Both the position numbers and the translations under genes were made by a program. A model generated the notes under the pieces. That model saw only the letters and a list, made by a program, of their open reading frames with translations. It had not been told where the DNA came from and made no database searches. 64,000 nucleotides of DNA, from the NCBI GenBank assembly GCA_963761305.1, contig CAVXGK010000001.1:960001-1024000 (forward strand), read 5' to 3'. Within the stretch, counting starts at the first letter, position 1; each line of letters starts with the position of its first letter. Source of the DNA: an uncultured Gemmatimonadaceae bacterium (lineage in GTDB: Bacteria > Gemmatimonadota > Gemmatimonadetes > Gemmatimonadales > Gemmatimonadaceae). This document shows, in pieces, positions 17,720 to 56,680 of the stretch.

Positions 17720-17819
17720 GCGCACGAGGGGTCGCAAGATATGTGCGTCCTGTGCGCTCGTTCGGCCTTGTCGCGGCGACGCCTCCAATAGTAGGGTTTC
17801 TCCTCGACTATTTTCCGCC

Positions 17820-20644: not shown

Positions 20645-20660
20645 CGGCATGACCTATGCT
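20645..20660 (+). promoter_or_regulatory. sigma54 -24/-12 promoter candidate for barrel gene 1
   Basis: CGG-CATGACCTAT-GCT (GG-N10-GC). Confidence 0.6.
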
Positions 20661-33433: not shown

Positions 33434-34435
33434 ATGGACCTGCTCGAACGCCTTCAACTCTCGCTAGGTGACGCCTACCGCATCGAGCGCGAGCTCAAGG
33501 GTGGGGCGATGTCGCGCGTGTTCGTCGCGAGCGACACCACGCTCGGCCGAACGGTCGTCATCAAGACGCTGCCGCCGGCCCTCACAGCGGGTCTGAGCAC
33601 GGAGCGTTTTCGCCGGGAGATCCGGCTGCTGGCCGCCCTGACGCACCCGAACATCGTGCCGATTCTCTCGGCGGGTGAGCGCGACGGGCTGCTGTACTAC
33701 ATCATGCCGTACATCACGGCCGAGTCGCTGCGAGCGCGGCTGATTCGCGAGCCGACGCTCGCCCTGCCCGATGCGCTCAACGTGGCGATCGAGATCGCCG
33801 AAGCGCTCGATTACGCGCACCGGCAGGGCATCGTCCACCGCGACATCAAGCCCGAGAACATTCTTCTCGCCGACAACCACGCGATCATCTCCGACTTCGG
33901 CATCGCGCGGGCCATCTCGCGCGCCGGCGAGGGCGAGCGGCTCACGGCGATGGGCATGTCGGTCGGCACGCCGGGCTACATGAGCCCCGAGCAGGCGGCC
34001 GGTGAGCTCGACGTTGACGGCCGCGCCGACACGTACGCGCTCGGCTGCGTCCTGTACGAGATGGTCGCGGGTTCGCCGCCGTTCACCGGAAAGAGCGCCG
34101 CCGCTGTGATCGCGGCGCACATGGCGACGCCGGTGCCGTCGGTGCGCGCCGTTCGCTCGACGGCGCCGCAGAAGCTCGACGAAGTGCTCAACCGGGCGAT
34201 GGCGAAGTCACCCGAGGAGCGCTACGCGACCGCCGCGGCGTTCGTGCAAGCGCTGCGCGCCGTCGAAGCGCGGACGCGTCGCCCCGTCATCTCGCGGACG
34301 CCGGTCCCCGCGCCGACGCCGACGGCGATGCCCGTCGTGCAGGCGCCGGCGAGCCGGACGCCGTGGTACTTCGTTGCCGGCGCCGTCGTCGTGATCGCCG
34401 CGCTGGTGGCCGCGCTCGCGATCCGATCCCGCTGA
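33434..34435 (+). CDS. Hanks-type Ser/Thr kinase ending in a single TM helix
   Basis: GGAMSRVF, VVIK, HRDIKPEN, DFGIA, GTPGYMSPEQ; C-terminal WYFVAGAVVVIAALVAALAI. Confidence 0.93.
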   Translation: MDLLERLQLSLGDAYRIERELKGGAMSRVFVASDTTLGRTVVIKTLPPALTAGLSTERFRREIRLLAALTHPNIVPILSAGERDGLLYYIMPYITAESLRARLIREPTLALPDALNVAIEIAEALDYAHRQGIVHRDIKPENILLADNHAIISDFGIARAISRAGEGERLTAMGMSVGTPGYMSPEQAAGELDVDGRADTYALGCVLYEMVAGSPPFTGKSAAAVIAAHMATPVPSVRAVRSTAPQKLDEVLNRAMAKSPEERYATAAAFVQALRAVEARTRRPVISRTPVPAPTPTAMPVVQAPASRTPWYFVAGAVVVIAALVAALAIRSR

Positions 34436-34447
34436 GCGGCGCGAGCC

Positions 34448-35623
34448 TTATTGCGACGCCGTGACCGGCGCCGCGAGCACCGTCCGGAACACGTCGACCG
34501 CCTTCTTCATCTGCGGCATCGTACCGACGGAGATGCGCGCGTAGTTCGCGAGTGACGGGAAGGCGCGGCCGATCGCCACCTTGTGCTTCACGCACTCGAG
34601 CTTGAACGCGTGTGCGTCGCGCCGGATGTCGACCATCATGAAGTTGGCGTCGGCGGCAGGCACCGTGTACCCGGCGCTCTCAAAGAACGAGCGCGTGAAG
34701 GCGCGTGCCTCCTCGTTCCGGTGCTGCTCCGAGGCCACGTGTGCGCCGTCGCCGACCGTCGCCGCGATGGCGGCGAGCGCGAGTTGGTTGACGTTCGAGC
34801 CGAGGAGCCACCGCCCCATCAACTTGAGCGTGTCCGGCTGGCCGATCGCGTACCCGGCGCGGAGCCCGGCCATGCCGAAGACTTTCGAAAATGTACGCGT
34901 GACGACGACGCGCGGATTGGCCAGCGCGATGGGGATCGCTGTCCGGTAGGACTTGGACGCGACGTATTCGTGATAGGCTTCGTCGACCAGAATCACGGTC
35001 TCCGGCGACGCGCGATTCACTGCCTCGACGAACGACGCCACGTCGTCCCCGCCATGCACGCTCGCCGTGGGGTTGTTCGGATTGCAGAAGTACACGAGTC
35101 CGGCGCCGCGCGACGCGGCGACGATGGCGTCGAGATCGAGCCTGAGCTTGCCGTCGACGGGAGGCGCAACCACGGGATGCTGGAGGAACCGCGCAAAGTT
35201 GGTCGGCGCCTCGAAGGTCGGTTCTGGGGCAACGAGCGCCCGATCGGGGGTCGTGAACGCCATGACGGCCGCGCGAAGCAGCTCGCCGGACCCGCATCCG
35301 AGTATGACGCTCGACGGCGCTACGCCGCGCGCCTTGGCGATCATCGCGATGGCGTCGTCTTCTTCCTTGACCGGGTATCGGTTGGCGTGGCCGAACGCGT
35401 TCGACACCGCGTCGAGCGCGCGGCGGCCGGGGCCATTCGGGTTCTCGTTGCTGTCGATCCGGATCATTCCCGGTGCCGAGGCGAGCAAGCGGTCGGCGCG
35501 TCGCTCGGGTTGGCCTTGAGCCAGGAGCGCCTCGTGGCCCTGCCACCGAATGAGTGGCGCCGTGAGCAGACCGGCGGTCCCTGCTCCGAGGCTGGCGACG
35601 AACGAACGGCGCGACACGGACAT
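34448..35623 (-). CDS. HisC-like class I/II PLP aminotransferase with twin-arginine N-terminus
   Basis: SNENPNGP, NPNNPT, DEAY, RTFSKVFGMAGLRAGY, RISVGT; MSVSRRSFV. Confidence 0.9.
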   Translation of the reverse strand: MSVSRRSFVASLGAGTAGLLTAPLIRWQGHEALLAQGQPERRADRLLASAPGMIRIDSNENPNGPGRRALDAVSNAFGHANRYPVKEEDDAIAMIAKARGVAPSSVILGCGSGELLRAAVMAFTTPDRALVAPEPTFEAPTNFARFLQHPVVAPPVDGKLRLDLDAIVAASRGAGLVYFCNPNNPTASVHGGDDVASFVEAVNRASPETVILVDEAYHEYVASKSYRTAIPIALANPRVVVTRTFSKVFGMAGLRAGYAIGQPDTLKLMGRWLLGSNVNQLALAAIAATVGDGAHVASEQHRNEEARAFTRSFFESAGYTVPAADANFMMVDIRRDAHAFKLECVKHKVAIGRAFPSLANYARISVGTMPQMKKAVDVFRTVLAAPVTASQ

Positions 35624-35774
35624 GGCGAGGCTCCCGATGGAGGCTTGGCCGAGTATAGCGCGGTTCGGCCGCCTGCACCACGGGCGGGCGAATCGACCGG
35701 ATTTCGGCGGGTAGTATGCGTATCGGCGACGTCGTGTTGCAGTTCCGATGTGTGCCTTGGATCACTCTTTTGCA

Positions 35775-35790
35775 GGGCACGACTTCTGCG
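35775..35790 (+). promoter_or_regulatory. sigma54 -24/-12 promoter candidate for the FHA-kinase-Ig operon
   Basis: GG-CACGACTTCT-GC at 35776-35789, about 95 nt before ATG 35886. Confidence 0.55.
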
Positions 35791-35885
35791 GCCGATGAGT
35801 CCGCGCAACAGGGTAGACTCCTGCAGTGCGAACGTGTATTTCACTACAGTTGCGTTGGGTTTCTCTCGGGAGTCGTCGCGGAGTC

Positions 35886-36578
35886 ATGTTCGGTGCCCTC
35901 GTCGTCGGTCTGCTGGTTTCCGCGCTCGCGGCCGGAGCGATCGCCATCGTGAGAGCCTGGTATCAAAGCCGGGGGGCGCGCGCGCGTGACGTTTTCCCGT
36001 TGCTCGTGATCCCTCATTCGACAACGCACGTGGAGCCGATGATCGGCCCCGACACGTTTTCGCCGGTGCAGGCCGCGCCCGTGCGTGCCGCGAACGGCTC
36101 GCGCCCGCTGCGTTCGCCGGGACGTCCGGCCGCTGGTGAAACGCTCGTGTTCGACGACGCGCGCTTCGCCGACGTCAATGCCGTGCCGGTGCGCGGCGCC
36201 AATTCCGAGACGGTGAGGTTCCTGCGGCCCGGCGAAGAACAGATTCAGATTCTCCCCGGGCGTCTGGAAGTGCTGGCGGGCGAGCCGGGCCATCGCGAGA
36301 TCCGATTCGTGCGCTCCCCCGGCGAGCCGGCGGAGCTCATCCTCGGACGCGACCCCGGCCCGTCGCCGCATGCGATCGCGCTGCACTCCGACACAGTCAG
36401 CCGCCGCCATGCGCGATTCGCGTTTGCTGATGGGCGCTGGTCGGTGACGAACCTGTCGCGCACCAACCCGGTGGTCGTGAACGACGAACGAATGCACGAC
36501 GACTCGATCGAACGTCCGCTCGCCGACGGCGACCGCCTCGAACTCGGCGAAGTCGTCCTGCGGTTCCGCGCGCGGTAG
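35886..36578 (+). CDS. membrane-anchored FHA-domain protein
   Basis: N-terminal TM; LILGRD, VSRRHA, NLSRTNPVVVN, LADGDRLELGEV. Confidence 0.9.
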   Translation: MFGALVVGLLVSALAAGAIAIVRAWYQSRGARARDVFPLLVIPHSTTHVEPMIGPDTFSPVQAAPVRAANGSRPLRSPGRPAAGETLVFDDARFADVNAVPVRGANSETVRFLRPGEEQIQILPGRLEVLAGEPGHREIRFVRSPGEPAELILGRDPGPSPHAIALHSDTVSRRHARFAFADGRWSVTNLSRTNPVVVNDERMHDDSIERPLADGDRLELGEVVLRFRAR

Positions 36579-36627
36579 CGCGCCGTCCGCCCATGAACGT
36601 GGCCGTCGTCCCCGCCCTTCGCGATCG

Positions 36628-39342
36628 ATGACCAACGACCGTGCTTCGCCAGGCCTGTCGGCCCTCGAACCCGCCTACGAGATCATCCGCGAGATCGGAC
36701 GCGGCGGGACGTCGGTCGTGTACCTCGCGCAGGAGCGCGCGACGCGGGCCGAGGTGGCGATCAAGCTCATTCGCGCGAAGTACGTCGCTGATGAAGAGGC
36801 GCTGGGCCGCTTCGCGCGCGAAGCCCGATTCCTGGAGCGCCTGGTGCATCCCAACATCGTGCGCGTCCGCGACGTGCTCGAGCTCGGTGATGCCGGGCTC
36901 GCCATCGTCATGGCGCACGTGCCGGGGCGCACGCTCAAGGAATTGATTCGCCAGGAAGGCCGGCTCACGGCCGAACGCACGGAACGGTTCACGCGCGACA
37001 TCGCCCGAGCCCTCGGCGCCGCGCACGCGATGGGAATCGTCCACCGCGACGTGAAGCCGGAAAACGTATTCGTGGACGCCGACGACCGTCCGCTGTTGGC
37101 CGACTTCGGCCTGGCGCGGTCGATGAGCAGCGATTCACAGCTCACGATGGCGGGGGTCGCGATCGGCACGCCGGCGTACATGCCGCCGGAACAGATCGAG
37201 GGCGCGACGCTCGACGCGCGCGGCGACGTCTACAGCCTCGGGCTCGTCGCGTGGGAGATGCTTTCGGGCCGTCGGCCGTGGGAGGGTGAAAGCCTCTACG
37301 CGGTGCTCTACCACCAGCGGTACGAGCAGTTGCCCGACGTGCGGGATCTCCGCGATGACGTTCCCGATTCGCTCGCTGACACCATCGCGGTGGCAATCGA
37401 AAAGCATCCGTCGATGCGCTGGCAGAACGCGACGCAGATGATCGAAGCGCTCGACGGCGCCGCGCCGCCGCAACGCTCACCGCGCCGGCCGCAGCCGTCG
37501 TCCGACACTGTGCGCTTCATGCGCCCGTCGGCCGCGGCGCTCAAGGTCGACTCCTGGATCAGCGAGCCGCCGCCGGCCGCCACGGCGCATCCACCGCCGC
37601 CGCTTTCGCCGCCGCGCGGCACAGCACCCGTCGCCGGGCGCGGCGCCGTTCCGGTCGTCGAGCTCGGCCCCGCCTCGTTTCCGCCGGGAGCGGCGCGGCC
37701 GCGGCATGACACGGTCACGCCGAACACGTTCGCCGCGCTCGCGGCGGAGCTCGACGCGCAGGACGAAGTGCCGGTCTCGCGGTCGCGACGACGCTACGTC
37801 ATCGCCTTCGGCGGAATCGCCGCACTGGCCACGCTCGGCGTCGTCGCCGTCAACGTGCAAGGCCGCTCGAGCGATGCTCACCGCTTGCCGGTTCTCGTCC
37901 AACGCGACTTCGCGATCAACGATTCCGCCGGCAGGGCGCTGCCCCAAACGAAACCGGCCGTCACGCCGCCGGCCGATTCGGTCGACTCGAGCGCAATGGC
38001 TCCGCAGGTCGCTCCGGCGCCGAGCGTCGCGTCGTCGAATGAGGCGCCGCCACAACTGCCCGAAACGCGGAAGTCGCCGCCGCCGACGCATCTCCCGGCG
38101 TCGACGTCCGACCGGCCCGGCAAGACTGTCGCGACGGCGGCGACCGACACGAAACCCGCGGACAAGAAAACGGCGACGACGTCCGGCGAAACCGTCCGAG
38201 ACAAATCGACCCCCAAGCCGCCCGACAAGCCTGTCGCGAAACCGATCGACAATCCGGCGCCGGCGGTCGATCCGCCGGTCGTCAGCCCGCGAGTGACCGT
38301 CGCCGCGGGCGGATTGCATTCGTGCATGCTCAACGCCGACGGCCGCGCCTACTGCTGGGGTGGCAACGATCGCGGACAACTCGGCGCCGGCGGAGCCAAT
38401 TCGGTGGCGACGCCGCTGGCGGTGTCGGGAGACGTCCGATTCACGATGATCGCGACCGGACTCTCGCACAGTTGCGCCGTCGCGCGCGGCGGCGGTGCGT
38501 GGTGCTGGGGCGAGAACGAGCGCGGCCAGCTGGGCGACCGGACGACGATGGCACATCAGGCGCCGATGCGCGTGGCGGACATTCGCATGTTCACGGCGAT
38601 CAGCGTCGGCGCGGCGCACAGTTGCGCACTCGACAGCCAAGGCGAGGCGTGGTGCTGGGGCTCGAACGCCCACGGACAGCTGGGGTCCGACGGCACGACC
38701 GTCGAGATCGGCGCGTCGACGCTCACTTCCGGCGACCATCACTTCAACAGCATTTCGCTCGGTTGGAATTTCAGCTGCGCGCTCGACACGGGCCATGCGT
38801 ACTGTTGGGGCGAGAACGCCAACGGACAACTCGGCGATGGGTCGATCACCGAGCATCGCGTTCCGACCGCGGTGGCGGGCGGGCTGACGTTCAAATCGAT
38901 CGCGACCGGCGCCACGCATGCCTGCGGCATCACGCAGAGCGGCGAAGCGTATTGCTGGGGGAACAACGTCGGCGGGCAGTTGGGCGACGGCACGCGCGTG
39001 GGCCATGAGACGCCGGCCGCCGTGAAGACGTCGCTCCGATTCGTGACGATCGCCGCGGGCGCGCTGCACACGTGCGCGCTGACGGCGGACGGCGGGGCGT
39101 TTTGTTGGGGACGGGACAACTACGGCCAGCTCGGCAACGGGGCGATGTCCCAGGACTCCATGGAGCCGGTGCGCGTGGCCGGCGACCACGCGTTCGCCAC
39201 GGTGCACGCGTTCGGATCGCACACCTGCGGAACGACGGCAGCCGGCGATCTGTTTTGCTGGGGCTACAATCTCGACGGCCAGCTGGGCGACGGCTCGCGG
39301 GTGAATCGGTCGAAGCCCGCGTACGTCGAACCGCCCGGCTGA
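36628..39342 (+). CDS. receptor-type Ser/Thr kinase: kinase, TM, Pro/Thr-rich stalk, RCC1-repeat beta-propeller
   Basis: GRGGTSVV, VAIK, HRDVKPEN, DFG, GTPAYMPPEQ; TM YVIAFGGIAALATLGVVAV; seven HxC...CWGxNxxGQLG repeats. Confidence 0.93.
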   Translation: MTNDRASPGLSALEPAYEIIREIGRGGTSVVYLAQERATRAEVAIKLIRAKYVADEEALGRFAREARFLERLVHPNIVRVRDVLELGDAGLAIVMAHVPGRTLKELIRQEGRLTAERTERFTRDIARALGAAHAMGIVHRDVKPENVFVDADDRPLLADFGLARSMSSDSQLTMAGVAIGTPAYMPPEQIEGATLDARGDVYSLGLVAWEMLSGRRPWEGESLYAVLYHQRYEQLPDVRDLRDDVPDSLADTIAVAIEKHPSMRWQNATQMIEALDGAAPPQRSPRRPQPSSDTVRFMRPSAAALKVDSWISEPPPAATAHPPPPLSPPRGTAPVAGRGAVPVVELGPASFPPGAARPRHDTVTPNTFAALAAELDAQDEVPVSRSRRRYVIAFGGIAALATLGVVAVNVQGRSSDAHRLPVLVQRDFAINDSAGRALPQTKPAVTPPADSVDSSAMAPQVAPAPSVASSNEAPPQLPETRKSPPPTHLPASTSDRPGKTVATAATDTKPADKKTATTSGETVRDKSTPKPPDKPVAKPIDNPAPAVDPPVVSPRVTVAAGGLHSCMLNADGRAYCWGGNDRGQLGAGGANSVATPLAVSGDVRFTMIATGLSHSCAVARGGGAWCWGENERGQLGDRTTMAHQAPMRVADIRMFTAISVGAAHSCALDSQGEAWCWGSNAHGQLGSDGTTVEIGASTLTSGDHHFNSISLGWNFSCALDTGHAYCWGENANGQLGDGSITEHRVPTAVAGGLTFKSIATGATHACGITQSGEAYCWGNNVGGQLGDGTRVGHETPAAVKTSLRFVTIAAGALHTCALTADGGAFCWGRDNYGQLGNGAMSQDSMEPVRVAGDHAFATVHAFGSHTCGTTAAGDLFCWGYNLDGQLGDGSRVNRSKPAYVEPPG

Positions 39343-41288
39343 TGCAGGCCAGCGTCGCCGGTAAGGCTTCCATCACGCCTGCCGTTCGACGAGCCGCCAC
39401 GTGGCTCGTCGGAATCGTGGTGGCCGGTTGCACGAGTGTGCAGACCGACACCGTGAACGGCGGCACGGTCGCTTCCGTTTCGGTCGCGCCGCCGACGACC
39501 ACGTTGTCGCTCGGATCGCAGGTCCCACTGCAAGCCGTGGTGCAGGACGCATCGGGCAACCCGGTCACCGGGGCGGACGTCTTCTGGTCCGTCCGCGATC
39601 CGAACATCGCGACGGTTTCCAGCGTGGGCGTCGTGACCGGCCTCGCGCTCGGCTCGACGCAGGTCGCGGCCAGCTCGAACGGCAAGTCGGGCATCGCCAC
39701 GATCACCGTGCAGAAGACGCCGGTGGCGAGCGTCGTCGTCACGCCGCCCCACGTCGACGCCGCGCCGGGCGTGCACACGCCCCTCACCGCGACGGCGTAC
39801 GACGCGGCGCAGAATCCGTTGACCGACCGCGTGATCACGTGGAGCACGAGCAGCGCGAGCGTCGCGACGGTCGACGCCAACGGCATGATGATCGCCGTCG
39901 GCCCGGGCAACGCGACGATCACGGCGACCTCGGAAGGCAAGAGCGGCACGGCGACGGTGACCGTGTCGCAGGCGCCCGTGGCGACGGTGGCGGTGACGCC
40001 AAGTCCGCTCTCGATGTCGGTGGGTCAATCGACGCAGCTCACGGCCACGCTCAAGGATGCGCAGGGCAACATCCTGAACGGCCGCGCCGTCACCTGGTCC
40101 AGCTCGAACTCCGGGGTCGCGACGGTGTCGGCCCAAGGTCTGGTGACAGCGGTCGCCGCGGGCGCCACGACGATCACGGCGACCAGCGAAACCAAGACGG
40201 GCAGCGACGCGGTGACGATCTCCAACGTGGCCGTCGGCTCGGTCGTCGTGCAGCCGCAGGGGCCGACGATCTTGCAGGGCACGAACGTGCAGCTCAGCGC
40301 GACGGTCCGCGACGTCAACGGCAACATCGTCACGGACCGCGTCGTGACCTGGACGTCGGCCAACACCTCAGTGGCGACGGTTTCGACGTCCGGAGTCGTG
40401 ACTGGCATAGGTTCCGGACAAGTCACGATCACCGCCACCAGCGAGGGCAAATCTGGAACGACGTCGGTCACCGTGACGCCGATCCCGGTCGCGAGCGTCG
40501 CGATTCAGCCGCCGAGCCCTGATACAGTGTTCATCGGCTACACGGCGCAGCTGACCGCCGTGACGAAAGACTCGGCGGGGGCAACCCTCCTCGGTCGGAC
40601 GATCGTCTGGCATTCCGACAACCCCGCGATCGCGACGATCGACGCGACCGGTCTCGTTACGGGTGTCGCCGCGTCGACGACGACGATCACGGCGACGAGC
40701 GAAGGCAAGACTGGATCCGCAACGCTAGTTTCCATGAAGGCGCCCGTAGGAAGCGTGGTCATCGCCCCGACAGTCGACTCGGTGACCGCCGCGGTCACGG
40801 CGCAGTTCACGGCCACCATCCGGGACGCGAAGGGCACGATCGTGACTGACCGGGCGATCAGCTGGAGCAGCAACCAGCCGACGCTCGTCAACGTCGCGCC
40901 GAACAACAATCCGACGGTGGTCGTTTCCGCAAGGAACAAGTCTCTGGGGCAAGTACTGATCATCGCCGCATCCGAGACGAAGGCCGATACGGCAACGGTG
41001 AACGTCATCGACGCCGTGGCGACGGTTCAGGTCACACCGATGAACCCGAACCTCAGTCTTGCGAGCAATCCGACCGTCCAACTCACCGCCACGTGCAGGG
41101 ACATGGCCAATACCGTCGTGACGGGTCGCACGATCAAATGGAGTTCGGCCAATCCAGCCATCGCGACGGTCGACGCGAATGGGCTGGTGACGGCGAAGAG
41201 CGTGGGCATGGTGCAGATCACGGCCACCCCTGTCTTCGACGTCGCCGGCGTGGCATCTCCGCCGGTCACGGTCAAGGTCACACCCTGA
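39342..41288 (+). CDS. lipoprotein with 7 bacterial Ig-like (Big_2-type) domains
   Basis: Lipobox VVAGC; ~85-aa repeats V.V.P...TW.S....ATV...G.V...G..TITATSEGK; ATG overlaps the kinase TGA. Confidence 0.9.
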   Translation: MQASVAGKASITPAVRRAATWLVGIVVAGCTSVQTDTVNGGTVASVSVAPPTTTLSLGSQVPLQAVVQDASGNPVTGADVFWSVRDPNIATVSSVGVVTGLALGSTQVAASSNGKSGIATITVQKTPVASVVVTPPHVDAAPGVHTPLTATAYDAAQNPLTDRVITWSTSSASVATVDANGMMIAVGPGNATITATSEGKSGTATVTVSQAPVATVAVTPSPLSMSVGQSTQLTATLKDAQGNILNGRAVTWSSSNSGVATVSAQGLVTAVAAGATTITATSETKTGSDAVTISNVAVGSVVVQPQGPTILQGTNVQLSATVRDVNGNIVTDRVVTWTSANTSVATVSTSGVVTGIGSGQVTITATSEGKSGTTSVTVTPIPVASVAIQPPSPDTVFIGYTAQLTAVTKDSAGATLLGRTIVWHSDNPAIATIDATGLVTGVAASTTTITATSEGKTGSATLVSMKAPVGSVVIAPTVDSVTAAVTAQFTATIRDAKGTIVTDRAISWSSNQPTLVNVAPNNNPTVVVSARNKSLGQVLIIAASETKADTATVNVIDAVATVQVTPMNPNLSLASNPTVQLTATCRDMANTVVTGRTIKWSSANPAIATVDANGLVTAKSVGMVQITATPVFDVAGVASPPVTVKVTP

Positions 41289-41289
41289 G

Positions 41290-44200
41290 ATGAGCTCCCG
41301 TCCGCGGGTGCATCAGCGTTTTCTGAAGCCCGCGGTACGACGGGCCGCCGCGTGGGCCGTGCTCATCGCGGTCGCCGCGTGCAGCCTCACGACGGAAGCC
41401 GTCCCCACGACCGACGTCGCGTCCGTCTCGGTCACGCCACCGACGATGACGCTGTCGGTCGGAGGGCAGGTTCCGCTGCAGGCGTTCGTGGAAGATGCGT
41501 TGGGGAAGCCGGTCGCGGGAACCAGCGTGTTCTGGTCCGTTCAGAATCCGACCATCGCCACGGTTTCGAGCACCGGCGTGGTGACCGGCATGGCAGTCGG
41601 ATCCACCGAGGTCTCGGCGAGCGCGAACGGCAAGTCGGGCATCGCGACGATCACCGTGCAGAAGGCACCGGTGGCGAGCGTCGTCGTCACACCGCCCCAC
41701 GTCGACGCCGCGCCGGGCGTGCACACGCCGCTCACCGCGACGGCGTACGACGCGGCGCAGAATGCGTTGACCGACCGCGCATTCACGTGGAGCACGAGCA
41801 ACGCGAGCGTCGCGACGGTCGACGCCAACGGCGTGATGATCGCCGTCGGCCAGGGCAGCGCGACGATCACGGCGACGTCGGAAGGAAAGATCGGCACGGC
41901 GACTGTCACCGTCTCGCAGGCGCCCGTGGCGACGGTGGCGGTGACGCCAAGTCCGCTCTCGATGTCGGTGGGTCAATCGACGCAGCTCACGGCCACGCTC
42001 GAGGACGCGCAAGGCAACGTCTTGAACGGACGTGTGGTGACCTGGTCCACGTCCAACTCCAACGTCGCCCTCGTCTCCTCGCAAGGAATGGTGACGGCCG
42101 TGGCGCAGGGAGCGGCGACGATCACCGCGACGAGTGAAGGCACCAGCGGCACGGCGTCGCTCACCGTCTCGAACGTGGCGGTCGGCTCGGTCACGGTGCA
42201 GCCGCAATCTCCGTCGATCCAGCAAGGGTCGAACGTGCAGCTCAGCGCCACGATTCGCGACGTGAACGGCGTGATCGTCACCGATCGCGTCATCACGTGG
42301 ACGTCGGGCAACGCGGCCGTGGCGACCGTGTCGAGTACCGGCGTCGTGACGGGAACAGGCGCGGGATCGGCGACGATCACCGCGACATGCGAAGGCAAAT
42401 CCGGCAGCTCGACGGTGACCGTGTCGCTGGTCCCCGTCGGAAGTGTGAGCGTGGCGCCGACGCCGGTGACGATTCGCATCAGCGGGACGACGACGCTCAT
42501 CGCCACCGTCAAGGACGTGAACGGCCTCGTCGTCACGAATCGCGGCGTGACCTGGTCGTCGAGCACTCCGGGTGTGGCGACTGTGTCGGCGGCGGGTGAA
42601 GTGACAGGCGTCGCGCTGGGCACGACGACGATCACGGCGACGAGCGAGACGAAGAGCGGCACGGCGTCCGTCACGGTGACCAACATTCCGGTCGGCAGCA
42701 TAACGCTGGCGCCGCTCACGAAGGGCTTGCTCGTCACGCAGACGGTGACGCTCACACCAACGGTCAAGGACAGTACGGGCGCCGTGGTGACCGACCGCCC
42801 GTTGACGTGGGGCTCGAGCGCGACGGGCGTGGCGACTGTATCGTCGGCCGGCGTGGTGACCGCGATCGCGCCGGGCACGGCGACCATCTCCGCGACGGCC
42901 GAAGGAAAAAGCGGGTCGAGCACGATCACCGTGTCGCCGATCCCAGTCGGCATCGTCGTCGTCACGCCGCCGTCTGACAGTCTCGCGGTCAACGGAACCA
43001 TTCAGCTCACGGCGACGACGGAAGATTCGGTCGGCGGGGTGCTCACCGGTCGCGTCGTGACATGGGGATCGAGCAACCCGGCCGCGGCCACTGTTTCGGC
43101 GACCGGACTGGTCACCGCGACAGCGAACGCCGGCGCGACGACGATCACCGCGACGAGCGAAGGCAAGAGCGGCACGTCGGCGATCACCGTGTACGTGCCC
43201 GTGGCGACGGTGACGGTCGCGCCACCGACGGCGACGATCTTCCTGGCGCAGACGCAGGCGTACACCGCGACGACGAAGGATGCGGGCGGGAACGTCCTCA
43301 CCGGACGGAAGGTGACGTGGGCCTCGGGCAATCCGAGCGTCGCCGCGGTGAACAGCACGTCGGGCGTGGCGACGGCGGCCGGACCGGGAACAACCACGAT
43401 CACGGCGACGAGCGAAGGCAAGTCGGGAACGGCGTCGCTCACGGTGCTGGTGCCGGTGGCGAACGTTCTCGTCGCTCCGCCGAGCGACAGCCTCGTGGTC
43501 AACGGAACCATTCAGCTCACGGCGACGCCGGTGGATTCGGTCGGTGGCGTGCTCACCGGTCGGACGGTCACGTGGGGATCGAGCAACCCGGCGGCGGCCA
43601 CGGTCTCGGCGACCGGCTTGGTCACGGCGGGCGCGAACGCCGGCACGACGACGATCACCGCGACGAGCGAAGGCAAGAGCGGCACCTCGGCGATCACGGT
43701 CTACGTTCCGGTGGCGACGGTCACGGTCACACCGACGCCAGTGAACCTGTTCGTGACGCAGACGCAGCAGTTCACCGCGACGACGAAGGACGCGGGCGGG
43801 AACGTCCTCACCGGCCGCAAGGTGACGTGGGGCTCGAGCAGTCCGCTCGTCGCGAGCGTGAGCACGTCGGGGCTCGCGACGGCGCTGCTCGTCGGGACGA
43901 CGACGATCACCGCGACGAGCGAAGGCAAGTCGGGCACTGCGACGCTGAACGTGGCGCTCGTGCCAGTGGCTACCGTGCACGTCAATCCGACGACGGACAG
44001 CCTGGTGGTCAACGGAACCATTCAGCTCACCGCGACGACGCTGGATTCGGTCGGCGGCACGCTTACCGGTCGCACGATCACGTGGGGATCGAGCAACCCG
44101 GCGGCAGCCACGGTCTCGGCGACAGGCCTCGTCACGGCCGGTGCGAACCCCGGCACGACGACGATCACGGCGACGAGCGAAGGCAAGAGCGGGACGTCGG

Positions 44201-45777
44201 CGATCACGGTGTACATCCCTGTCGCTTCGGTGACGGTCGCGCCGCCATCGGCGACCATTCTTCCGACACAGACACAGACGTTCACGGCGACAACGAAGGA
44301 CGTTGGCGGGAACGTCCTCACGGGCCGGCTCGTGACTTGGGGCTCGAGTGTTCCAGGTGTCGCGACGGTGAACTCGTCGGGAGTCGCGACGGCGGTCGGT
44401 CAGGGAACGACGACCATCACGGCGTCGAGCGAGGGCAAATCAGGAACGGCGTCGCTGACCGTGCTCGTACCGGTGGCGAACGTTCTCGTCTCTCCGACGA
44501 GTGATAGCCTCGTCGTCAACGGCAGCATTCAGCTGACGGCGACGCCGGTGGACGCGGGCAACAATCCGCTGGCCGGACGCACCGTGACGTGGGGCTCGAG
44601 CAACCCGGCCGCGGCCACGGTCTCGGCGACGGGCGTCGTCACCGCGACGGGAAACCCCGGCACGACGACCATCACCGCGACGAGTGAGGGCAAGAGCGGG
44701 ACGTCGGTGATCACCGTGTATGTCCCCGTCGCATCCGTGACCGTCGCGCCGCCCACGTCGAGCGTGACGGTCGGGAACACGACGACTCTCACGGCGACGA
44801 CGCTGGATGCGTCGAGCAACCCACTCACGGGACGGCTGATCACGTGGAACTCGCTGAACCCGACCGTGGCGACTGTTTCACCGACCGGGCTCGTCACCGT
44901 CGTGGGCCGAGGGACGGCGACGATCACGGCGACGAGCGAGGGCAAGTCGGGATCGGCGACGGTCACCGGCACCGCGGCGAGCGTGACGGTTGCTCCGGCG
45001 CCAACGACAACTTTCGTCACCGGCACCGTGACGTTGACGGCGACGGCGCTCGACGCTCACGGCGTGGCGCTTCCAGGTGTTCCAGCAACGGCGTTCGCCT
45101 GGTCGTCGGATGGTCCCGGATTCGCGACGGTGTCGACGAGCGGCGTCGTGACTGGCGTGGCGCTCGGCAGCGCGAACATCAGCGCGCAGATCGACGGCAA
45201 ATCCGGCGCGTCGACAGTGACGGTTCTCGCACCGCCGGTTGCGAGCGTGACCATCTCACCCCACGGCGCGACGATCTTCACAGGCGGCTCCGTTCCACTC
45301 ACCGCCGTGGTGAAAGACGTCAACGGGACCGACGTCACCGCCGGTCACCCTCCGGTGTGGTCGTCGACGGTTCCATCGGTCGCCTCGGTGACGGCGGCCG
45401 GCGTCGTGTTTGCGGCCGGACCGGGAACGACACAGATCACCGCCACGACTGACGGAAAGAGTGACACAGTGACCGTCACGGTTCTTGCGACCGTGGCAAG
45501 CATCACGATCACGCCGGCCGGCGACGTTACCATCGGTACGCCTGTGACACTCACGGCGAACTTGTTCGACGCGGCGCACAATCCGATCACCGGCCGATCC
45601 GTGACGTGGTCGATCAGCGTTGGCAGTACAATTGCGACGCTCACGCCGAGTGGGAACACCGCGCAAATCGCCGGCATTCTCGCGCAGACGGGGGTGACCA
45701 TCACGGCTTCATTGGTACCGCTCACCGGCGAGACCCCGCCGCCGCCCGGAACCCTCTCAGTCAACATCGTACCGTAG
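41290..45777 (+). CDS. lipoprotein with 17 bacterial Ig-like (Big_2-type) domains
   Basis: Lipobox VAAC; 17 Trp-centred repeats counted; no other domain. Confidence 0.92.
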   Translation: MSSRPRVHQRFLKPAVRRAAAWAVLIAVAACSLTTEAVPTTDVASVSVTPPTMTLSVGGQVPLQAFVEDALGKPVAGTSVFWSVQNPTIATVSSTGVVTGMAVGSTEVSASANGKSGIATITVQKAPVASVVVTPPHVDAAPGVHTPLTATAYDAAQNALTDRAFTWSTSNASVATVDANGVMIAVGQGSATITATSEGKIGTATVTVSQAPVATVAVTPSPLSMSVGQSTQLTATLEDAQGNVLNGRVVTWSTSNSNVALVSSQGMVTAVAQGAATITATSEGTSGTASLTVSNVAVGSVTVQPQSPSIQQGSNVQLSATIRDVNGVIVTDRVITWTSGNAAVATVSSTGVVTGTGAGSATITATCEGKSGSSTVTVSLVPVGSVSVAPTPVTIRISGTTTLIATVKDVNGLVVTNRGVTWSSSTPGVATVSAAGEVTGVALGTTTITATSETKSGTASVTVTNIPVGSITLAPLTKGLLVTQTVTLTPTVKDSTGAVVTDRPLTWGSSATGVATVSSAGVVTAIAPGTATISATAEGKSGSSTITVSPIPVGIVVVTPPSDSLAVNGTIQLTATTEDSVGGVLTGRVVTWGSSNPAAATVSATGLVTATANAGATTITATSEGKSGTSAITVYVPVATVTVAPPTATIFLAQTQAYTATTKDAGGNVLTGRKVTWASGNPSVAAVNSTSGVATAAGPGTTTITATSEGKSGTASLTVLVPVANVLVAPPSDSLVVNGTIQLTATPVDSVGGVLTGRTVTWGSSNPAAATVSATGLVTAGANAGTTTITATSEGKSGTSAITVYVPVATVTVTPTPVNLFVTQTQQFTATTKDAGGNVLTGRKVTWGSSSPLVASVSTSGLATALLVGTTTITATSEGKSGTATLNVALVPVATVHVNPTTDSLVVNGTIQLTATTLDSVGGTLTGRTITWGSSNPAAATVSATGLVTAGANPGTTTITATSEGKSGTSAITVYIPVASVTVAPPSATILPTQTQTFTATTKDVGGNVLTGRLVTWGSSVPGVATVNSSGVATAVGQGTTTITASSEGKSGTASLTVLVPVANVLVSPTSDSLVVNGSIQLTATPVDAGNNPLAGRTVTWGSSNPAAATVSATGVVTATGNPGTTTITATSEGKSGTSVITVYVPVASVTVAPPTSSVTVGNTTTLTATTLDASSNPLTGRLITWNSLNPTVATVSPTGLVTVVGRGTATITATSEGKSGSATVTGTAASVTVAPAPTTTFVTGTVTLTATALDAHGVALPGVPATAFAWSSDGPGFATVSTSGVVTGVALGSANISAQIDGKSGASTVTVLAPPVASVTISPHGATIFTGGSVPLTAVVKDVNGTDVTAGHPPVWSSTVPSVASVTAAGVVFAAGPGTTQITATTDGKSDTVTVTVLATVASITITPAGDVTIGTPVTLTANLFDAAHNPITGRSVTWSISVGSTIATLTPSGNTAQIAGILAQTGVTITASLVPLTGETPPPPGTLSVNIVP
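42940..44970 (+). repeat. intragenic tandem repeat of a two-domain unit (~510 bp x4)
   Basis: AACGGAACCATTCAGCTC at 42991, 43501 and 44011; variant at 44518. Confidence 0.85.
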
Positions 45778-45782
45778 CTGTC

Positions 45783-46877
45783 ATGAGTATTCGATCATTG
45801 GCCGCGCTCGGCGCGACGCTCGTTCCTCTCGCCATCCAGGCGCAGGCGCCGATTCCCAAGGAGCCGCTCAAGCAGCGGCCCGTCGTCGTGCGAATGCGCT
45901 CCGCGTGCAGCGGTGCCGTCGCCCAAACGTCATCGCCGACGGACGCTCAGCGTCGCGAAGCTCGCGACATGGCGCAGGCGGCGCGACAGTCGGCGATCCT
46001 CGGCGACACGGCCGCTGCGCTCAGCCAATTGCGCGGCGCGGCAGGCCTCGATCCCACCGACGCGAATCTCGCCTTCGAGCTGGCGCGCGCATACGAGAGC
46101 GCGGGCGCTCTCGCGAACGCCGCGTCGGAGTACTGCCGATTTCTGTCGCTTGCGCCGAACGCTTCCGAAGCATCCGAGGTCCGCACGCACGTCGCCGCGA
46201 TCGCGCCGCCCAAGCCCGACACGATCGTCACCGTCGAAGGGAACGCGTTCAAACGCGGCGTCGACGCGTACGGCAAGGACCAGCTCCCCGAAGCCGAGGC
46301 GTCGTTCGGCACGGTGATCAAGATCGATTCCACCTCGGCCGACGCGTTTTACGATCGCGCGGTCGTCCGCGCGGCACAGGAGCGGCGCGGCGACGCTGCC
46401 GACGACTTCGAACACTATTTGCGGATTCGCCCGGAAGCGGCCGACCGTGCCGGCGTCGTGGCGCGCATCAACGAGTTGCGCGCCGTGGGCCTCTCGGCCT
46501 CGGAAGCGTTCGGACTCGGCGTCGTCCTTCCGGGCGGCGGCCAGTTCTACACCCGGCGCCCGATCCGCGGAATGCTGTCGCTGATCGCGGTAGGCGGAGC
46601 GGCGGGGATCGCGCTGGTGTCCAAGACGACGACGACGACGAAGACACTGTCGGCCACAGACCCGTTCGGCAACCGCTACAACTACACGGTTCCCGTGCCG
46701 AACAAGTCGCGACCATACCTCATCCCGGGCCTGGCCGCCGCCGGCGGCATCGCGTTGGCCAGTGCGATCGACGCGGCCCTCTACGCGCACAACGTGCGTG
46801 CGGGCACCGGCTTGTCCGTCTCGCTCGTGCCGAGTGCCGGCGGCGTCGGCGTGTTCGCGTCGCTCAGGGTTCCCTGA
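45783..46877 (+). CDS. secreted TPR protein with C-terminal hydrophobic PGGGQFY segment
   Basis: Signal peptide; TPR-like helices (LDPTDANLAFELARAYE, AFYDRAVV, FEHYLRIRP); C-terminal hydrophobic helices and a terminal beta-strand. Confidence 0.82.
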   Translation: MSIRSLAALGATLVPLAIQAQAPIPKEPLKQRPVVVRMRSACSGAVAQTSSPTDAQRREARDMAQAARQSAILGDTAAALSQLRGAAGLDPTDANLAFELARAYESAGALANAASEYCRFLSLAPNASEASEVRTHVAAIAPPKPDTIVTVEGNAFKRGVDAYGKDQLPEAEASFGTVIKIDSTSADAFYDRAVVRAAQERRGDAADDFEHYLRIRPEAADRAGVVARINELRAVGLSASEAFGLGVVLPGGGQFYTRRPIRGMLSLIAVGGAAGIALVSKTTTTTKTLSATDPFGNRYNYTVPVPNKSRPYLIPGLAAAGGIALASAIDAALYAHNVRAGTGLSVSLVPSAGGVGVFASLRVP

Positions 46878-46990
46878 CGCGCGTCCCGCGGCGGTCTCGT
46901 CAGTTAGGCGATCGCGTGGAGCGAATCGTCAACGACGACGAGGGATCGCCGTAAACTGGATCAGCTCTTGCGGAGGGGTCTTCTCCTTCT

Positions 46991-49660
46991 GTGAGGGAGA
47001 AGAGCTTGCCTCGGGCGCGGCGCGGAATGGTTTGGATCGCGGCGACGATCGTGGCGGCGTGCAGCGCGGCAACGGACGTCGCGACTACGGCCAACGTCGC
47101 GACCGTGTCGATCGCGCCGCCGTCGACCACTGTGTCGATCGGCTCGCAGATTCCGCTTCAGGCGCTCGTCCAGGATCCCGGCGGGAAGACGATCCCCGCG
47201 ACGGACGTTTTCTGGTCCATCCAGGACTCCAGCATCGCGACGATCTCCAGTACCGGGGTCGTAACCGCGGTCGCACTCGGATCGACGCAGGTCGCGGCGA
47301 GTGTGAATGGCAAGTCGGGAATCGCCACGATCACCGTCGAGAAGACCCCGGTGGCAAGTGTGGTCGTCGCGCCCCCGCACGTGGATGCCGCGCCGGGCGC
47401 GCACACGCAGCTCGCGGCTGTCACGTATGACGCCGCGCAGAGTCCGCTCCCCGGCCGCGCCGTCACGTGGAGCACCAGCAACGCCGCCGTCGCCACGGTC
47501 GATGCGAATGGCATGGTGTCCGCCTTGAGTCCGGGCACCGCGACGATCACCGCCATGTCGGAGACCAAGACCGGTCTCGCGATCATTACGGTCTCGCAAG
47601 CCGCCGTCGCGAACGTGGCGGTGACGCCGAGTCCGCTGTCGATGTCGGTCGGCCAGACGACGCAGTTGACGGCCACGCTCAAGGACACCGTGGGCAACGT
47701 GCTGAATGCACGCGTGGTCGTGTGGTCCAGCGCCAACCCCGCGGTGGCCACGGTTTCATCGCAAGGCGTGTTGACGGCGATCTCGACCGGTCGTGCGACG
47801 ATCACCGCCACGAGCGAAGGCCGGAGCGGTACCGCCGACGTCACGATCACGAACGTGCCCGTCGGCTCGGTGACGATTCAGCCACAGGCACCATCGGTCG
47901 TGATCGGAACGAACGTGCAACTCAGCACGATCGTTCGCGACGCGAATGGCGACATCGTCACCGATCGCGTGGTGACGTGGGCGTCGAGCAATCCTGCGTC
48001 GGCGACGGTGTCGACGTCCGGCGTCGTGACGGGTGTTTCCGTTGGCAGCGCCACCATCACGGCGACGAGCGAAGGAAAATCCGCGACGACCATCGCCACG
48101 GTCATTCCGGTGCCGATCGGCAGCGTCACCGTCTCGCCGGCGACGGCGAGCACGCACATCGGATCGACGACGACTCTCACGGCCACCGTCAAAGATCAAA
48201 ACGGGACGGTGGTGACGAATCACATAGTCACCTGGACATCGAGTAACCCAGCCGTCGCCACGGTCGCGGGCGGTGTCGTCACCGGCGTCGCGCTCGGCAC
48301 CGCGACGATCACCGCGACGAGCGACGGAAGAAGCGGGACGGCGTCGGTGACCGTAGCGGGATTGCCCGTCGGCAGCGTGACCGTCGCACCGGCGAGCAAG
48401 GCGATGCTCGTCGCGCAGAATTTCGCGCTGTCCGTGACCGTGAAAGATTCAATCGGCGGCGTCGTCACCGATCGGCCTGTGTCGTGGAGCTCGAGCAATG
48501 CGAGCGTCGCGACCGTGTCGGCGTCGGGCGTCGTGACGGCCGTTGCCCCTGGCTCGGCGACGATCACCGCCACGAGCGAGACGAAGAGCGGCACCAGCGC
48601 GATCACAGTGTCGCCGGTGCCGGTGAGCTTCGTCGTCGTTCAACCGCCGCGCGATACGATGTTCGCCAGCACGACGTTCCAATTGACGGCGCAGACACAG
48701 GATTCCGTTCACGGTGTTCTCACCGGCAGAACCGTGACCTGGACGACGAACAACGCGTCGGTCGCCACCGTGTCGTCGACAGGAGTCGTCACCGCGACGT
48801 CCACCGGCGGCAACGCCACGATCACGGCCACCAGCGAGGGAAAGAGCGGCACGTCGGCGATCACCGTAGTCGTTCCGATCGCGACGGTCGCTGTCACGCC
48901 GGCGACCAAGAGCATCCTCGCCGGGGACACCGCGCCGTTCGCGGCGACGGTCAAGGACGCGCTGGGCAACGTTCTCAACGGCCGCGTCCTGCTCTGGAGC
49001 TCGAGCAACCCCGGTGTCGCCACCGTCTCGCCGACCGGAACAGCGACTGGCACCGGCGTCGGCGTCACGACCATCACCGCCACGGCGCCGCTCGAGGGGA
49101 AATCGGGCAGCGCGACGCTGACCGTCAACGCCGCTTCAGTCAGCGTGACGCCGTCACCGGACTCCGCGTACATCGGGCAGACGGCGACGCTGACTGCGAC
49201 GGCCAAAGACAAGAACGGGAATCCGGTGCCGGCGCAGGGCTTCAGCTGGAGTTCGACCAACTCTGGCGTCGCCACCGTGTCGCAAGCGGGGCTGGTGACC
49301 GCTGTAGCCGCGGGCTCGGCGAACATCGTCGCCACGCTCACCGGTCAATCCGGCCAAGCCACCTTCAAGGTCCTCGCGCCGGTGGCAACCGTCACCGTGT
49401 CTCCGTCGAATCCACCGGCGATCGCGACCGGCAAGAACGTGGCGCTGCAAGCGGCGCTCAAGGATGCGTCGAACGCCCCTATTGGCCCGGGTCGCGTGGT
49501 CACGTGGTCGACCAACGACACCAGCGGCATCGTCACCATCACACCGACGGCGGGGACCTACAACGCGACGGTGAGAGGCAACAAGGTTGGTACCGTCACC
49601 ATCACGGCGACCAGCGAGGGCAGGACGGGAACGGCGACCGTTACCGTGACGAAGAACTGA
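46991..49660 (+). CDS. lipoprotein with 10 bacterial Ig-like (Big_2-type) domains
   Basis: Lipobox IVAAC; 10 repeats; first four colinear with those of the other two Ig proteins. Confidence 0.9.
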   Translation: MREKSLPRARRGMVWIAATIVAACSAATDVATTANVATVSIAPPSTTVSIGSQIPLQALVQDPGGKTIPATDVFWSIQDSSIATISSTGVVTAVALGSTQVAASVNGKSGIATITVEKTPVASVVVAPPHVDAAPGAHTQLAAVTYDAAQSPLPGRAVTWSTSNAAVATVDANGMVSALSPGTATITAMSETKTGLAIITVSQAAVANVAVTPSPLSMSVGQTTQLTATLKDTVGNVLNARVVVWSSANPAVATVSSQGVLTAISTGRATITATSEGRSGTADVTITNVPVGSVTIQPQAPSVVIGTNVQLSTIVRDANGDIVTDRVVTWASSNPASATVSTSGVVTGVSVGSATITATSEGKSATTIATVIPVPIGSVTVSPATASTHIGSTTTLTATVKDQNGTVVTNHIVTWTSSNPAVATVAGGVVTGVALGTATITATSDGRSGTASVTVAGLPVGSVTVAPASKAMLVAQNFALSVTVKDSIGGVVTDRPVSWSSSNASVATVSASGVVTAVAPGSATITATSETKSGTSAITVSPVPVSFVVVQPPRDTMFASTTFQLTAQTQDSVHGVLTGRTVTWTTNNASVATVSSTGVVTATSTGGNATITATSEGKSGTSAITVVVPIATVAVTPATKSILAGDTAPFAATVKDALGNVLNGRVLLWSSSNPGVATVSPTGTATGTGVGVTTITATAPLEGKSGSATLTVNAASVSVTPSPDSAYIGQTATLTATAKDKNGNPVPAQGFSWSSTNSGVATVSQAGLVTAVAAGSANIVATLTGQSGQATFKVLAPVATVTVSPSNPPAIATGKNVALQAALKDASNAPIGPGRVVTWSTNDTSGIVTITPTAGTYNATVRGNKVGTVTITATSEGRTGTATVTVTKN

Positions 49661-56400: not shown

Positions 56401-56680
56401 CGGCGGGAACGGTGGCGGTCGGGGACGTGGACGCGGCGGTCAGGGCGGACTGCCGAACTTCCAGGCGCTCAATGGCGCGTTCGTCGCGCAGCTCAACGCG
56501 CAGGACCTCGGCGACTTGGCGCCGACATCGGCGACGCTCGCGGCGTTCGGCGCGAGCTGTCGCGACTTGTCGAAAGCGGTGGCTACACTGGAGAAAATCG
56601 AGGCTGGGGCCGCGGCGCTGAAGACAGCCGCGGATGCGATCGATATTCCTCGCGGCGGCCTCAAGCCGCCTGTGTGCTAG
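53468..56680 (+). CDS. large secreted BNR/Asp-box (VPS10/GH74-like) beta-propeller protein
   Basis: WRNLGPFRGGRV; many SxDGGxTW Asp-boxes; STYGRGFW; PGTYTLKL Ig-like tail. Confidence 0.9.
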   Translation: MTTIRRLLRPAAVSVAALTFAGSARAQTGGGPVDPRVYSALTWRNLGPFRGGRVAAVSGAIGQPGVFYIGLPAAGVWKTTSAGQTWFPIFDAIKDVSSIGSVDVAPSDPNIIYVGTGDIITGGSINEGNGVYKSTDAGRTWRHLGLDATKQIPSMSVDPHDPKVVLLAAQGNVHAKTHERGVYRSTDGGTTWTQTLFVDDSTGAQKISRAFDTPNTVFATTVAHYAPPPPATGAGGGVGGGGRGGPQAGPTSTKLFKSTDGGATWTEISGNGLPARLTGKLWVAVANNSNAQRVYVIGDAGLYRSDDGGATWHQMAADDERIRNGQGGYNCGVYVDPQNPDVVYTLNTASYKSTDGGKTFTGFKGAPGGDDPQQMWIDPTNGQRMLFGYDQGAIVSLDGGGTWSSWYNQSTEQIYHLSIDNSVPYWVYGTQQDAGAIRTRIRGNLGAITPLDWNPVSGWEWGTIVPDPLDPNTVYASGSGILKISYPGEQWINVSPAIDASRQLRTTSDQPLVFAPWNKHMLIAAFQSVWTTIDGGAHWTSISPDLAMRSDAPRPANGGPPVGGAIQSMRASTVGTGTIWVGTNNGLIKVTHDGGKTWSDASIPGIPSVQRAEVLSVEPSHFDAAEAYAVLGLYRLGDYTPYVFRTRDSGKSWTRITEGLATNQPSGSFARVVRNDPQRRGLLFAGTESGMYVSFDDGDHWSTLSLNLPTTSNRDIALKDNDIVVSTYGRGFWVIDDYSMLRQVSSNTASEAAHLFKPGDVIRARRNVGADTPFPPEVPHALNPAEGVQIDYWLAQAARGDVTLDVLDASGALVRHMTSAAVAPVSEAARPPEPNFWIAPPTSIPAIVGGNRTHWDLRYDPPNSFAHSFEINANPGQTPPSPEGPVAIPGTYTLKLTVDGRSYSQTVWIKPDPHSPAPVAAIAAQHALQMKLLQGINVSFDGRRTAQELRDALHPPASSTSEAAARANALAAQLDTIIGGNGGGRGRGRGGQGGLPNFQALNGAFVAQLNAQDLGDLAPTSATLAAFGASCRDLSKAVATLEKIEAGAAALKTAADAIDIPRGGLKPPVC

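Follow-up and report, generated by a model that had tools for sequence, protein, structure and literature searches.

A recurring four-gene module of Gemmatimonadota with an FHA protein, a kinase-RCC1 receptor, an Ig lipoprotein and a TPR protein: a candidate signalling path across the envelope

Known kinase-FHA pathways and the locus in this study

In two-membrane bacteria, trans-envelope signalling by a kinase and an FHA protein is known mainly as a trigger of type VI secretion. In the T6SS (type VI secretion system) of Acidovorax, outer-membrane TssW is reported to bind PpkA, which phosphorylates Fha (PMC12607579), and TagQ/TagR-PpkA-Fha1 is the precedent of a T6SS threonine-phosphorylation pathway in Pseudomonas (PMC13713981). 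The phosphorylated juxtamembrane segment of PknB is reported to bind FhaA (PMC12077195), the FHA domain of DgcB takes up the protein's own pT14 tail, whose +3 residue sits in a pocket (PMC6733907), and the ectodomain of the plant receptor CRINKLY4 is described with one disulfide per propeller blade (10.1101/2020.08.10.245050). Here we describe a gene cluster on a 64,000-nucleotide stretch of DNA from an uncultured Gemmatimonadaceae bacterium (GCA_963761305.1, contig CAVXGK010000001.1, positions 960,001 to 1,024,000 of the forward strand; the window), in which a membrane-anchored FHA protein and a receptor kinase with an RCC1-like ectodomain are encoded beside lipoproteins with immunoglobulin-like (Ig) repeats and a TPR membrane protein. 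The module is real and conserved, recurs across Gemmatimonadota and is apparently undescribed, and its sequences suggest a version of trans-envelope kinase-FHA signalling built from other parts. The source genome is 5.2 Mb in size with 66% GC and is 93% complete, and its named protein relatives are from Gemmatimonadaceae.

The cluster consists of six neighbouring genes on the + strand in the order transmembrane (TM)-FHA, kinase-RCC1, Ig-A, Ig-B, TPR and Ig-C, with Pfam matches to FHA, to Pkinase and seven RCC1 repeats, to Big_2 arrays and to TPR. The TM-FHA gene (35886..36578; 230 amino acids) starts with an ATG, and its reading frame is open from a GTG at 35826. It is followed by the Hanks Ser/Thr receptor kinase-RCC1 (36628..39342; 904 amino acids), Ig lipoprotein A (39342..41288; 648 amino acids, 7 Big_2 domains), Ig lipoprotein B (41290..45777; 1495 amino acids, 17 Big_2 domains), the TPR membrane protein (45783..46877; 364 amino acids) and Ig lipoprotein C (46991..49660; 889 amino acids, 10 Big_2 domains), which is an extra clade-specific paralogue and has an alternative TTG start at 47006 with a better ribosome-binding site. 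The junctions, in gene order, are a gap of 49 nt, a TGA/ATG overlap at 39342, and gaps of 1 nt, 5 nt and 113 nt. An earlier note on this DNA had described six co-oriented genes with such gaps and arrays of 7, 17 and 10 Ig repeats; the junctions agree with the first point, and a profile built from the locus gave the same repeat numbers. A sigma70 scan gave 0 sites, and none of the 5 terminators (6.8 expected) lies at any gene junction. In DNA contigs from four soil runs, most of the stretch was found in pieces, and a single spanning contig was found in none.

By analogy, the module would work like TssW/TagQR-PpkA-Fha or PknB-FhaA from other parts, while being a member of neither. Like the T6SS pathway, it has a predicted inner-membrane Hanks kinase with an exported domain and an FHA partner, a lipoprotein or membrane partner of the outer envelope encoded alongside and, in some loci, a PP2C phosphatase. 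Unlike that pathway, the cluster is without a T6SS gene, its FHA protein is membrane-anchored, the kinase ectodomain is an RCC1 propeller, and the partners are Ig rods and a TPR protein with a DUF5683-like domain. The window FHA protein scored 31.5 bits against the TagH/Fha1 profile (TIGR03354), for which the cut-off is 120.25. The T6SS sheath protein VipB was not found in the present genome (at its completeness of 93%), and it occurs in 4 of 21 genomes that bear the cassette versus 5 of 40 others; T6SS was therefore rejected as the output. An obligate link to Tad pili was rejected in the same way, RcpC being present in 7 of the 21 positive genomes and in 6 of the 40 others, and no FlhA/SctV match above the cut-off was present in the genome.

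The PknB-FhaA/FhaB-PstP system is the other close parallel. FhaB has a TM-FHA architecture, and mycobacterial FHA genes are linked with a phosphatase. As in that system, a juxtamembrane Thr of the window kinase is predicted to dock an FHA domain. The module differs in having RCC1 in place of PASTA, in the absence of cell-wall genes and in being patchy rather than universal. The window kinase reached 278.8 against the Stk1/PknB profile NF033483 (cut-off 450), through its kinase part only, and the FHA protein reached 27.8 against the FhaB/FipA profile NF049868 (cut-off 125). Kinase-FHA logic appears to recur across Gemmatimonadota without T6SS and with different parts.

The conserved unit, its distribution and its promoter region

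The conserved unit is a set of four genes: TM-FHA, kinase-TM-stalk-RCC1, one Ig lipoprotein and the TPR protein. Among 60 relatives, 20 have an FHA homologue and 19 of these also a full-length TPR homologue, no relative having the latter alone, and all positives belong to one family (20 of 36, versus 0 of 24 in two others). The FHA, kinase-RCC1, Ig and TPR genes are consecutive in 14 of the 19 TPR loci, and the other 5 are incomplete at their ends; a single rod gene is present in 9 of the 14 complete loci. A single-protein GTDB scan gave no match, and a later GTDB scan anchored on the TPR protein gave 51 loci, nearly all titled Gemmatimonadota. Four parts are present in 29 of these loci and another 14 are compatible but cut by the locus end, while the remainder comprises 3 without a rod, 2 in which the rod follows the TPR gene and 3 of other architectures. 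One complete cluster (L083) stands under an Acidobacteriota record title.

So as not to depend on one gene, an FHA profile was used as a second anchor in 301 genomes of the phylum. It gave 34 matches, a tally that includes one unpublished genome (G199) counted there alone; the own family has 28 positives among 70 genomes, and a sister family has none among 125. The loci of 30 of the 33 non-own matches were examined. The complete set is present in 21, including 3 with the permuted order TPR-Ig-FHA-kinase. Another 2 loci are truncated, the TPR protein is absent from 3 that have FHA and a kinase, and FHA stands alone in 4, of which 2 are on short contigs. In metagenomes, a rod lies 5' of the TPR gene in 57 of 62 loci with sufficient upstream DNA, and all four parts are present in 10 of 14 long loci. 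These counts are not additive because the sets partly overlap and share descent. The homologues are therefore not scattered but clustered, and in this the earlier note is supported. The distribution is nonetheless patchy, with the cluster in 18 of 30 genomes of the genus. In 3 loci a PP2C phosphatase gene separates the FHA and kinase genes, two loci (L113 and L124) have PP2C fused to FHA, and 2 further loci have a PP2C motif alone.

The adjacency bears on the reading that the kinase/FHA pair and the lipoprotein/TPR pair are physically unconnected and merely share one sigma54 operon for the same condition. Either half occurs alone in a few loci, and the genome encodes 57 Hanks kinases and, away from the cluster, several Big_2-RCC1 lipoproteins, as such a reading would allow. 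Against it, the four genes are adjacent across families even when permuted, and the locus comparison found no other neighbour kept across families; we consider the reading very improbable. Two loci that seemed to hold TPR and rod without kinase (L088 and L094) were dropped as evidence; they are probably truncated, since three similar loci turned out to contain the full cluster in permuted order. The cluster has two FHA genes in L081, L084, L086 and L096, where the FHA-linker Thr discussed below is replaced by Ser and the kinase Thr motif is kept, and in L108, L111 and L114. Many frameshifts in the cluster genes of L035 (G024), L049 (G022), L083 and L096 reflect assembly error or decay. No description of such a gene combination was found in open-licence PMC and bioRxiv texts without supplements, so that mention elsewhere is possible; listings from the same sources gave nothing relevant on DUF5683 or on PEGA/TPR/kinase combinations. 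The Atlas holds kinase-RCC1 clusters for Gemmatimonadota and Bacillota under automatic names.

Upstream of the FHA gene, a sigma54-type -24/-12 box, GGCA-N7-TGC, is located at 35776..35789 (+). The bare pattern GG-N10-GC, which the earlier note had pointed out, is meaningless alone because it occurs 92,031 times in the genome; conservation across upstream regions makes the box real. On the sense strand 5' of FHA, GG[AC]A-N7-TGC, a pattern defined after the sites had been seen, is present in 35 of 38 regions, versus 0, 2, 3 and 0 at other spacings and 1 on the antisense strand. The more distant relatives have the form GGAA-N7-TGC, and a sigma54-type box was found in 11 of 29 distant loci, with 0-2 in the controls. 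In the genome, 148 of 405 GGCA-N7-TGC sites are intergenic versus 111 of 755 and 123 of 989 at wrong spacings. The GGAA form shows no intergenic enrichment there (100 of 572 versus 98 of 508 and 85 of 568), and genome-wide support is therefore limited to the GGCA form. With GG at -24 and GC at -12 in a 10-nt spacing, a conserved sequence and orientation, and RpoN and 11 sigma54 activators encoded in the genome, the motif upstream has the features of a sigma54 promoter, and the earlier suggestion of a sigma54-type box is supported.

A TGTG-N8-TCAC element just 5' of the box (35751..35766, +), CRP/FNR-like on a weak and tentative label, was seen by eye in the six closest upstream regions. A second conserved non-coding element, GT[AG]GAC-N~15-GTGTAT (35812..35846, +), is present by eye in 12 of 13 regions and in 6 of 30 of a wider set. 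A sigma54 activator with a receiver domain is encoded 17 kb upstream (17478-19208, +), and two further intergenic boxes, GGCAYG-N5-TGC, are found at 20646 and 21780 before genes without a strong Pfam match. An FHA-type sigma54 activator was ruled out: the genome has only three FHA proteins, and of the two outside the cluster, judged by eye, one is FHA-GAF-cyclase-like and the other is encoded next to a PP2C-like gene.

The kinase, the FHA protein and a shared threonine motif

The kinase domain spans residues 12 to 275 (Pkinase, E = 2.9e-50) with intact catalytic motifs and is followed by a cytoplasmic tail, a single TM helix around residue 389, a Pro/Ala/Ser/Thr stalk of 143 residues and a seven-bladed RCC1-like propeller (residues 554 to 904). 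The 14 Cys residues of the protein make one pair per propeller blade, and the cytoplasmic part has none, which fits a propeller that is exported. Additional orthologue-specific conservation was observed in blades 6 and 7. A search for RCC1 homologues added little, as the matches were mostly multi-propeller proteins. CRINKLY4/ACR4 is likewise a receptor Ser/Thr kinase with a seven-bladed propeller and, as reported, a disulfide per blade (10.1101/2020.08.10.245050), and the profile of the window propeller matched its ectodomain with E = 9e-19; however, the window kinase has the opposite topology and no cysteine-rich domain. This likeness is an architectural parallel that does not imply kinship because UVR8, HERC and RCC1 score far higher. 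Big_2-RCC1 fusion proteins are encoded elsewhere in the genome at C1:695552-697528, C2:1158032-1159414 and C2:1333621-1335408.

The TM-FHA protein has an N-terminal membrane helix, a variable linker and an FHA domain (PF00498, E = 2e-12). The phosphothreonine pocket is intact, with the G/R, S/R/H and S/T/N residues invariant in 70 of 70 rows. The best match of the FHA model is the FHA domain of Bdellovibrio DgcB (Z-score = 15.9, root mean square deviation = 1.7 over 99 residues), although DgcB, GarA and MDC1 are tied within about 1 Z.

The kinase and FHA proteins share a short motif. In the kinase, the juxtamembrane sequence DTVRFMRP (37504..37527, +) contains Thr294 and is the predicted FHA docking site; in the FHA linker, ETVRFLRP (36207..36230, +) contains Thr109 and is a predicted self-tail phosphosite. 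Among the 4205 predicted proteins of the genome (gene calls made in the present analysis), [DE]T[VIL]RFxRP occurs only in the kinase tail and the FHA linker, a count that expresses exclusivity and not probability because the pattern was derived from these two proteins. In the kinase, the motif is a conserved island within a divergent linker (13 of 13 aligned). The looser T-x-x-[FVLI]-x-R is present in 31 of 31 kinase tails, as compared with a mean of 2.7 and a maximum of 7 after shuffling, and in 27 of 35 FHA linkers; T-x-x-F-x-R is present in 26 of the linkers, and among 52 kinase tails of the genome it is found in that of the cluster kinase only. In the distant set, from which one duplicate locus is left out, T-x-x-[FY]-x-R is present in 15 of 25 kinases (shuffle mean 0.4) and 4 of 32 FHA proteins, so that the kinase copy appears to be the older and wider one.

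The shared motif is likely a phosphothreonine docking site, and it supports the coupling of kinase and FHA protein that the earlier note had proposed. As in DgcB, GarA and OdhI, which include the top structural matches, a Thr with a hydrophobic +3 residue is located shortly before the FHA domain (PMC6733907, for the reported self-tail). Thr109 (Thr in 63 of 70 rows) with Phe112 at +3 is N-terminal to an FHA domain with an intact pocket. The present protein differs from those regulators in that it has no enzyme domain, the motif is also found in the cognate kinase, and the FHA copy is lost in distant lineages. In the unphosphorylated FHA model, the linker segment forms a two-residue strand of low confidence.

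Ig rods, the TPR membrane protein and a proposed signalling path

Each Ig array starts right after the lipobox Cys (residues 30, 31 and 24 in Ig-A, Ig-B and Ig-C, respectively) and ends without a head domain. The three proteins are paralogues whose domains 1-4 are 68-90% identical mutually, versus mostly 50-72% to single-copy orthologues, and six close relatives, as well as part of the distant loci, likewise have several rod genes. The three rods represent a paralogue expansion within one clade. Domains 7-13 of Ig-B are tandem copies of a two-domain unit, with alternate domains 69-88% identical and a DNA period of 510 nt, and Ig-B was lengthened by tandem duplication of this unit. In the rod tree, for the most part unresolved, 8 of 18 inner branches are open, and no order of events was read from it. 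The earlier note had taken rods of three lengths as the design of the system; this does not hold, since most of the complete close-relative loci have one rod, rod length across loci ranges from 2 to 22 repeats, and 3 loci are rodless.

Domain 1 has position-specific residues that are absent from the distal repeats and strong in close relatives, and distant rods keep the first Big_2 domain and then continue with TIG, Big_1/invasin or DUF11 arrays of up to 3,247 amino acids; from these two observations, specificity seems to reside at the anchored end while length is free. Leptospira Lig proteins are lipoprotein-anchored, and the tandem Big_2 rod of the window resembles those of Lig, intimin and invasin, with profile matches to LigA/LigB and intimin. 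Unlike these proteins, the window rods have neither a head domain nor a β-barrel, are linked to a kinase and carry position-specific domains 1-2.

The free length bears on a reading in which the rods remain in the periplasm as rulers or tethers and damage to the membranes, or their separation, is what the kinase reports. Some rods are short (2-6 domains), some loci are rodless, and TagQR-PpkA is reported to be triggered by membrane damage (PMC13713981), all of which such an integrity sensor would accommodate. However, rods of 17-22 domains would be some 70-90 nm long in a periplasm of roughly 15-25 nm, taking commonly quoted values for both. The free variation of length is unlike a ruler, and the distribution given above, with none of 125 sister-family genomes positive, is patchy. 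An integrity sensor is accordingly quite unlikely in our estimate.

The TPR protein has a signal peptide followed by TPR helices with a Cys pair that is invariant in 110 of 110 rows. Its C-terminal domain runs from PGxGQxY through a helix, a long β-hairpin and a second helix to a terminal hairpin, which is absent from 7 homologues. The domain resembles DUF5683 at a sub-threshold level, with matches at E = 0.1 or lower (9.8e-5 at best) in 47 of the 54 members, the window protein itself scoring 13.9 bits against a cut-off of 26.7, and DUF6677 below the cut-off in 35 of the 54; Atlas cosines of 0.87-0.90 to TM2 and Borrelia P13 are leads only. Profile search gave no solved relative of the C-terminal domain, which does not imply a new fold. 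Fold searches with the TPR model, for which the predicted local distance difference test (pLDDT) is 85.5, returned TPR proteins only and barely probed this domain. Its helices are mildly hydrophobic, with Kyte-Doolittle maxima mostly of 1.3-2.3 as against values mostly of 2.3-3.6 in the membrane helix of the FHA protein, a property that would suit an outer-membrane or oligomeric location. The cluster may give a context to the uncharacterised DUF5683-like membrane domain.

These helices, in their resemblance to DUF5683 and P13, also leave room for control from the inside out, in which the TPR protein would oligomerise to make a helical pore in the outer membrane for the export or display of the Ig rods as adhesins, with the kinase and FHA protein regulating place and time. 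P13 figures among listed families of outer-membrane pores (PMC4827864), and distant rods that keep the N-terminal Big_2 domain and then switch arrays look like cargo with a common export signal. On the other hand, the TPR gene is retained in the 3 rodless loci, the present rods have no adhesive head domain, and in 5 of the 62 metagenome loci the C-terminal domain is fused to Ig/TPR without an upstream rod or propeller, while in 2 loci it stands beside a different kinase. A general membrane anchor suits the occurrence of the domain outside the cluster at least as well as a dedicated exporter, and we regard the exporter as unlikely. In the loci with the different kinase (L098:190-3600 and L100:4746-8071), a zinc-ribbon kinase with a membrane helix adjoins a secreted one-Big_2 protein with a DUF5683-like C-terminal domain. 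Proteins of about 690 amino acids outside the cluster (L196:6357-8438, L208, L209, L210 and L225) have an unnamed N-terminal domain, Big_1, TPR and a DUF5683-like C-terminal domain.

We consider it somewhat more probable than not that the four-part set forms a sigma54-controlled signalling path across the envelope that runs from the outside in, judging from the sequences and from the analogous pathways. The rods would be lipid-anchored in the outer membrane, with the first one or two domains recognised and the remainder serving as a spacer of free length. The TPR protein would hold the rods and present a periplasmic TPR surface. The disulfide-bonded propeller on its 143-residue stalk would bind the rod/TPR complex, and the kinase would thereby be clustered and activated. 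After autophosphorylation, phosphorylated Thr294 in the tail would dock in the FHA pocket with Phe at +3 and recruit the membrane-bound FHA protein. In the present lineage, the FHA protein's own Thr109 copy may compete for the pocket, which would close it or chain FHA proteins into a focus, and PP2C would reset the switch. Because no effector gene accompanies the cluster, a membrane scaffold by which the rods themselves are placed or regulated would be the likeliest output.

Several observations weigh against this outside-in path. L081, L082 and L084 have no rod, and the loci with FHA and kinase without TPR or with FHA alone indicate that the parts are not obligately linked. The distinctness of the first Ig domain fades in distant loci and is partly present in unrelated lipoproteins, and proteins not encoded in the cluster also contain the TPR C-terminal domain. 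Of 25 distant kinases, 10 lack the kinase-tail motif. The Thr109 segment is 14 residues from the FHA domain, versus 18 in DgcB, and has a pLDDT of about 53; since Ser replaces the FHA-linker Thr in 8 of 35 linkers and the Thr is missing in 28 of 32 distant proteins, the phosphorylated Thr109 step would be lineage-specific. A bolder form of the path, a stand-alone touch receptor without a secretion system in which tunable surface rods pull on an outer-membrane TPR anchor, the CRINKLY4-like kinase reads the pull across the periplasm and the motif common to kinase and FHA protein allows FHA to polymerise into a membrane focus at the contact, is conceivable but doubtful. The outside-in path would offer a kinase-substrate-reader triple with two specific threonines and a candidate ligand for a bacterial RCC1/CRINKLY4-like ectodomain.

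Upstream of the cluster, a 333-residue Hanks kinase with a C-terminal membrane helix and without an ectodomain is encoded at 33434-34435 (+) and is a possible accessory kinase of the module. Its orthologue stands directly 5' of the FHA gene in three genomes (G025, G003 and G021); in the window, an aminotransferase gene (34448-35623, - strand) separates the two. Downstream lie genes for a Vps10/BNR-repeat protein (53468-56680) and for an RND pump together with its outer-membrane efflux protein (56744-62442), which are ordinary.

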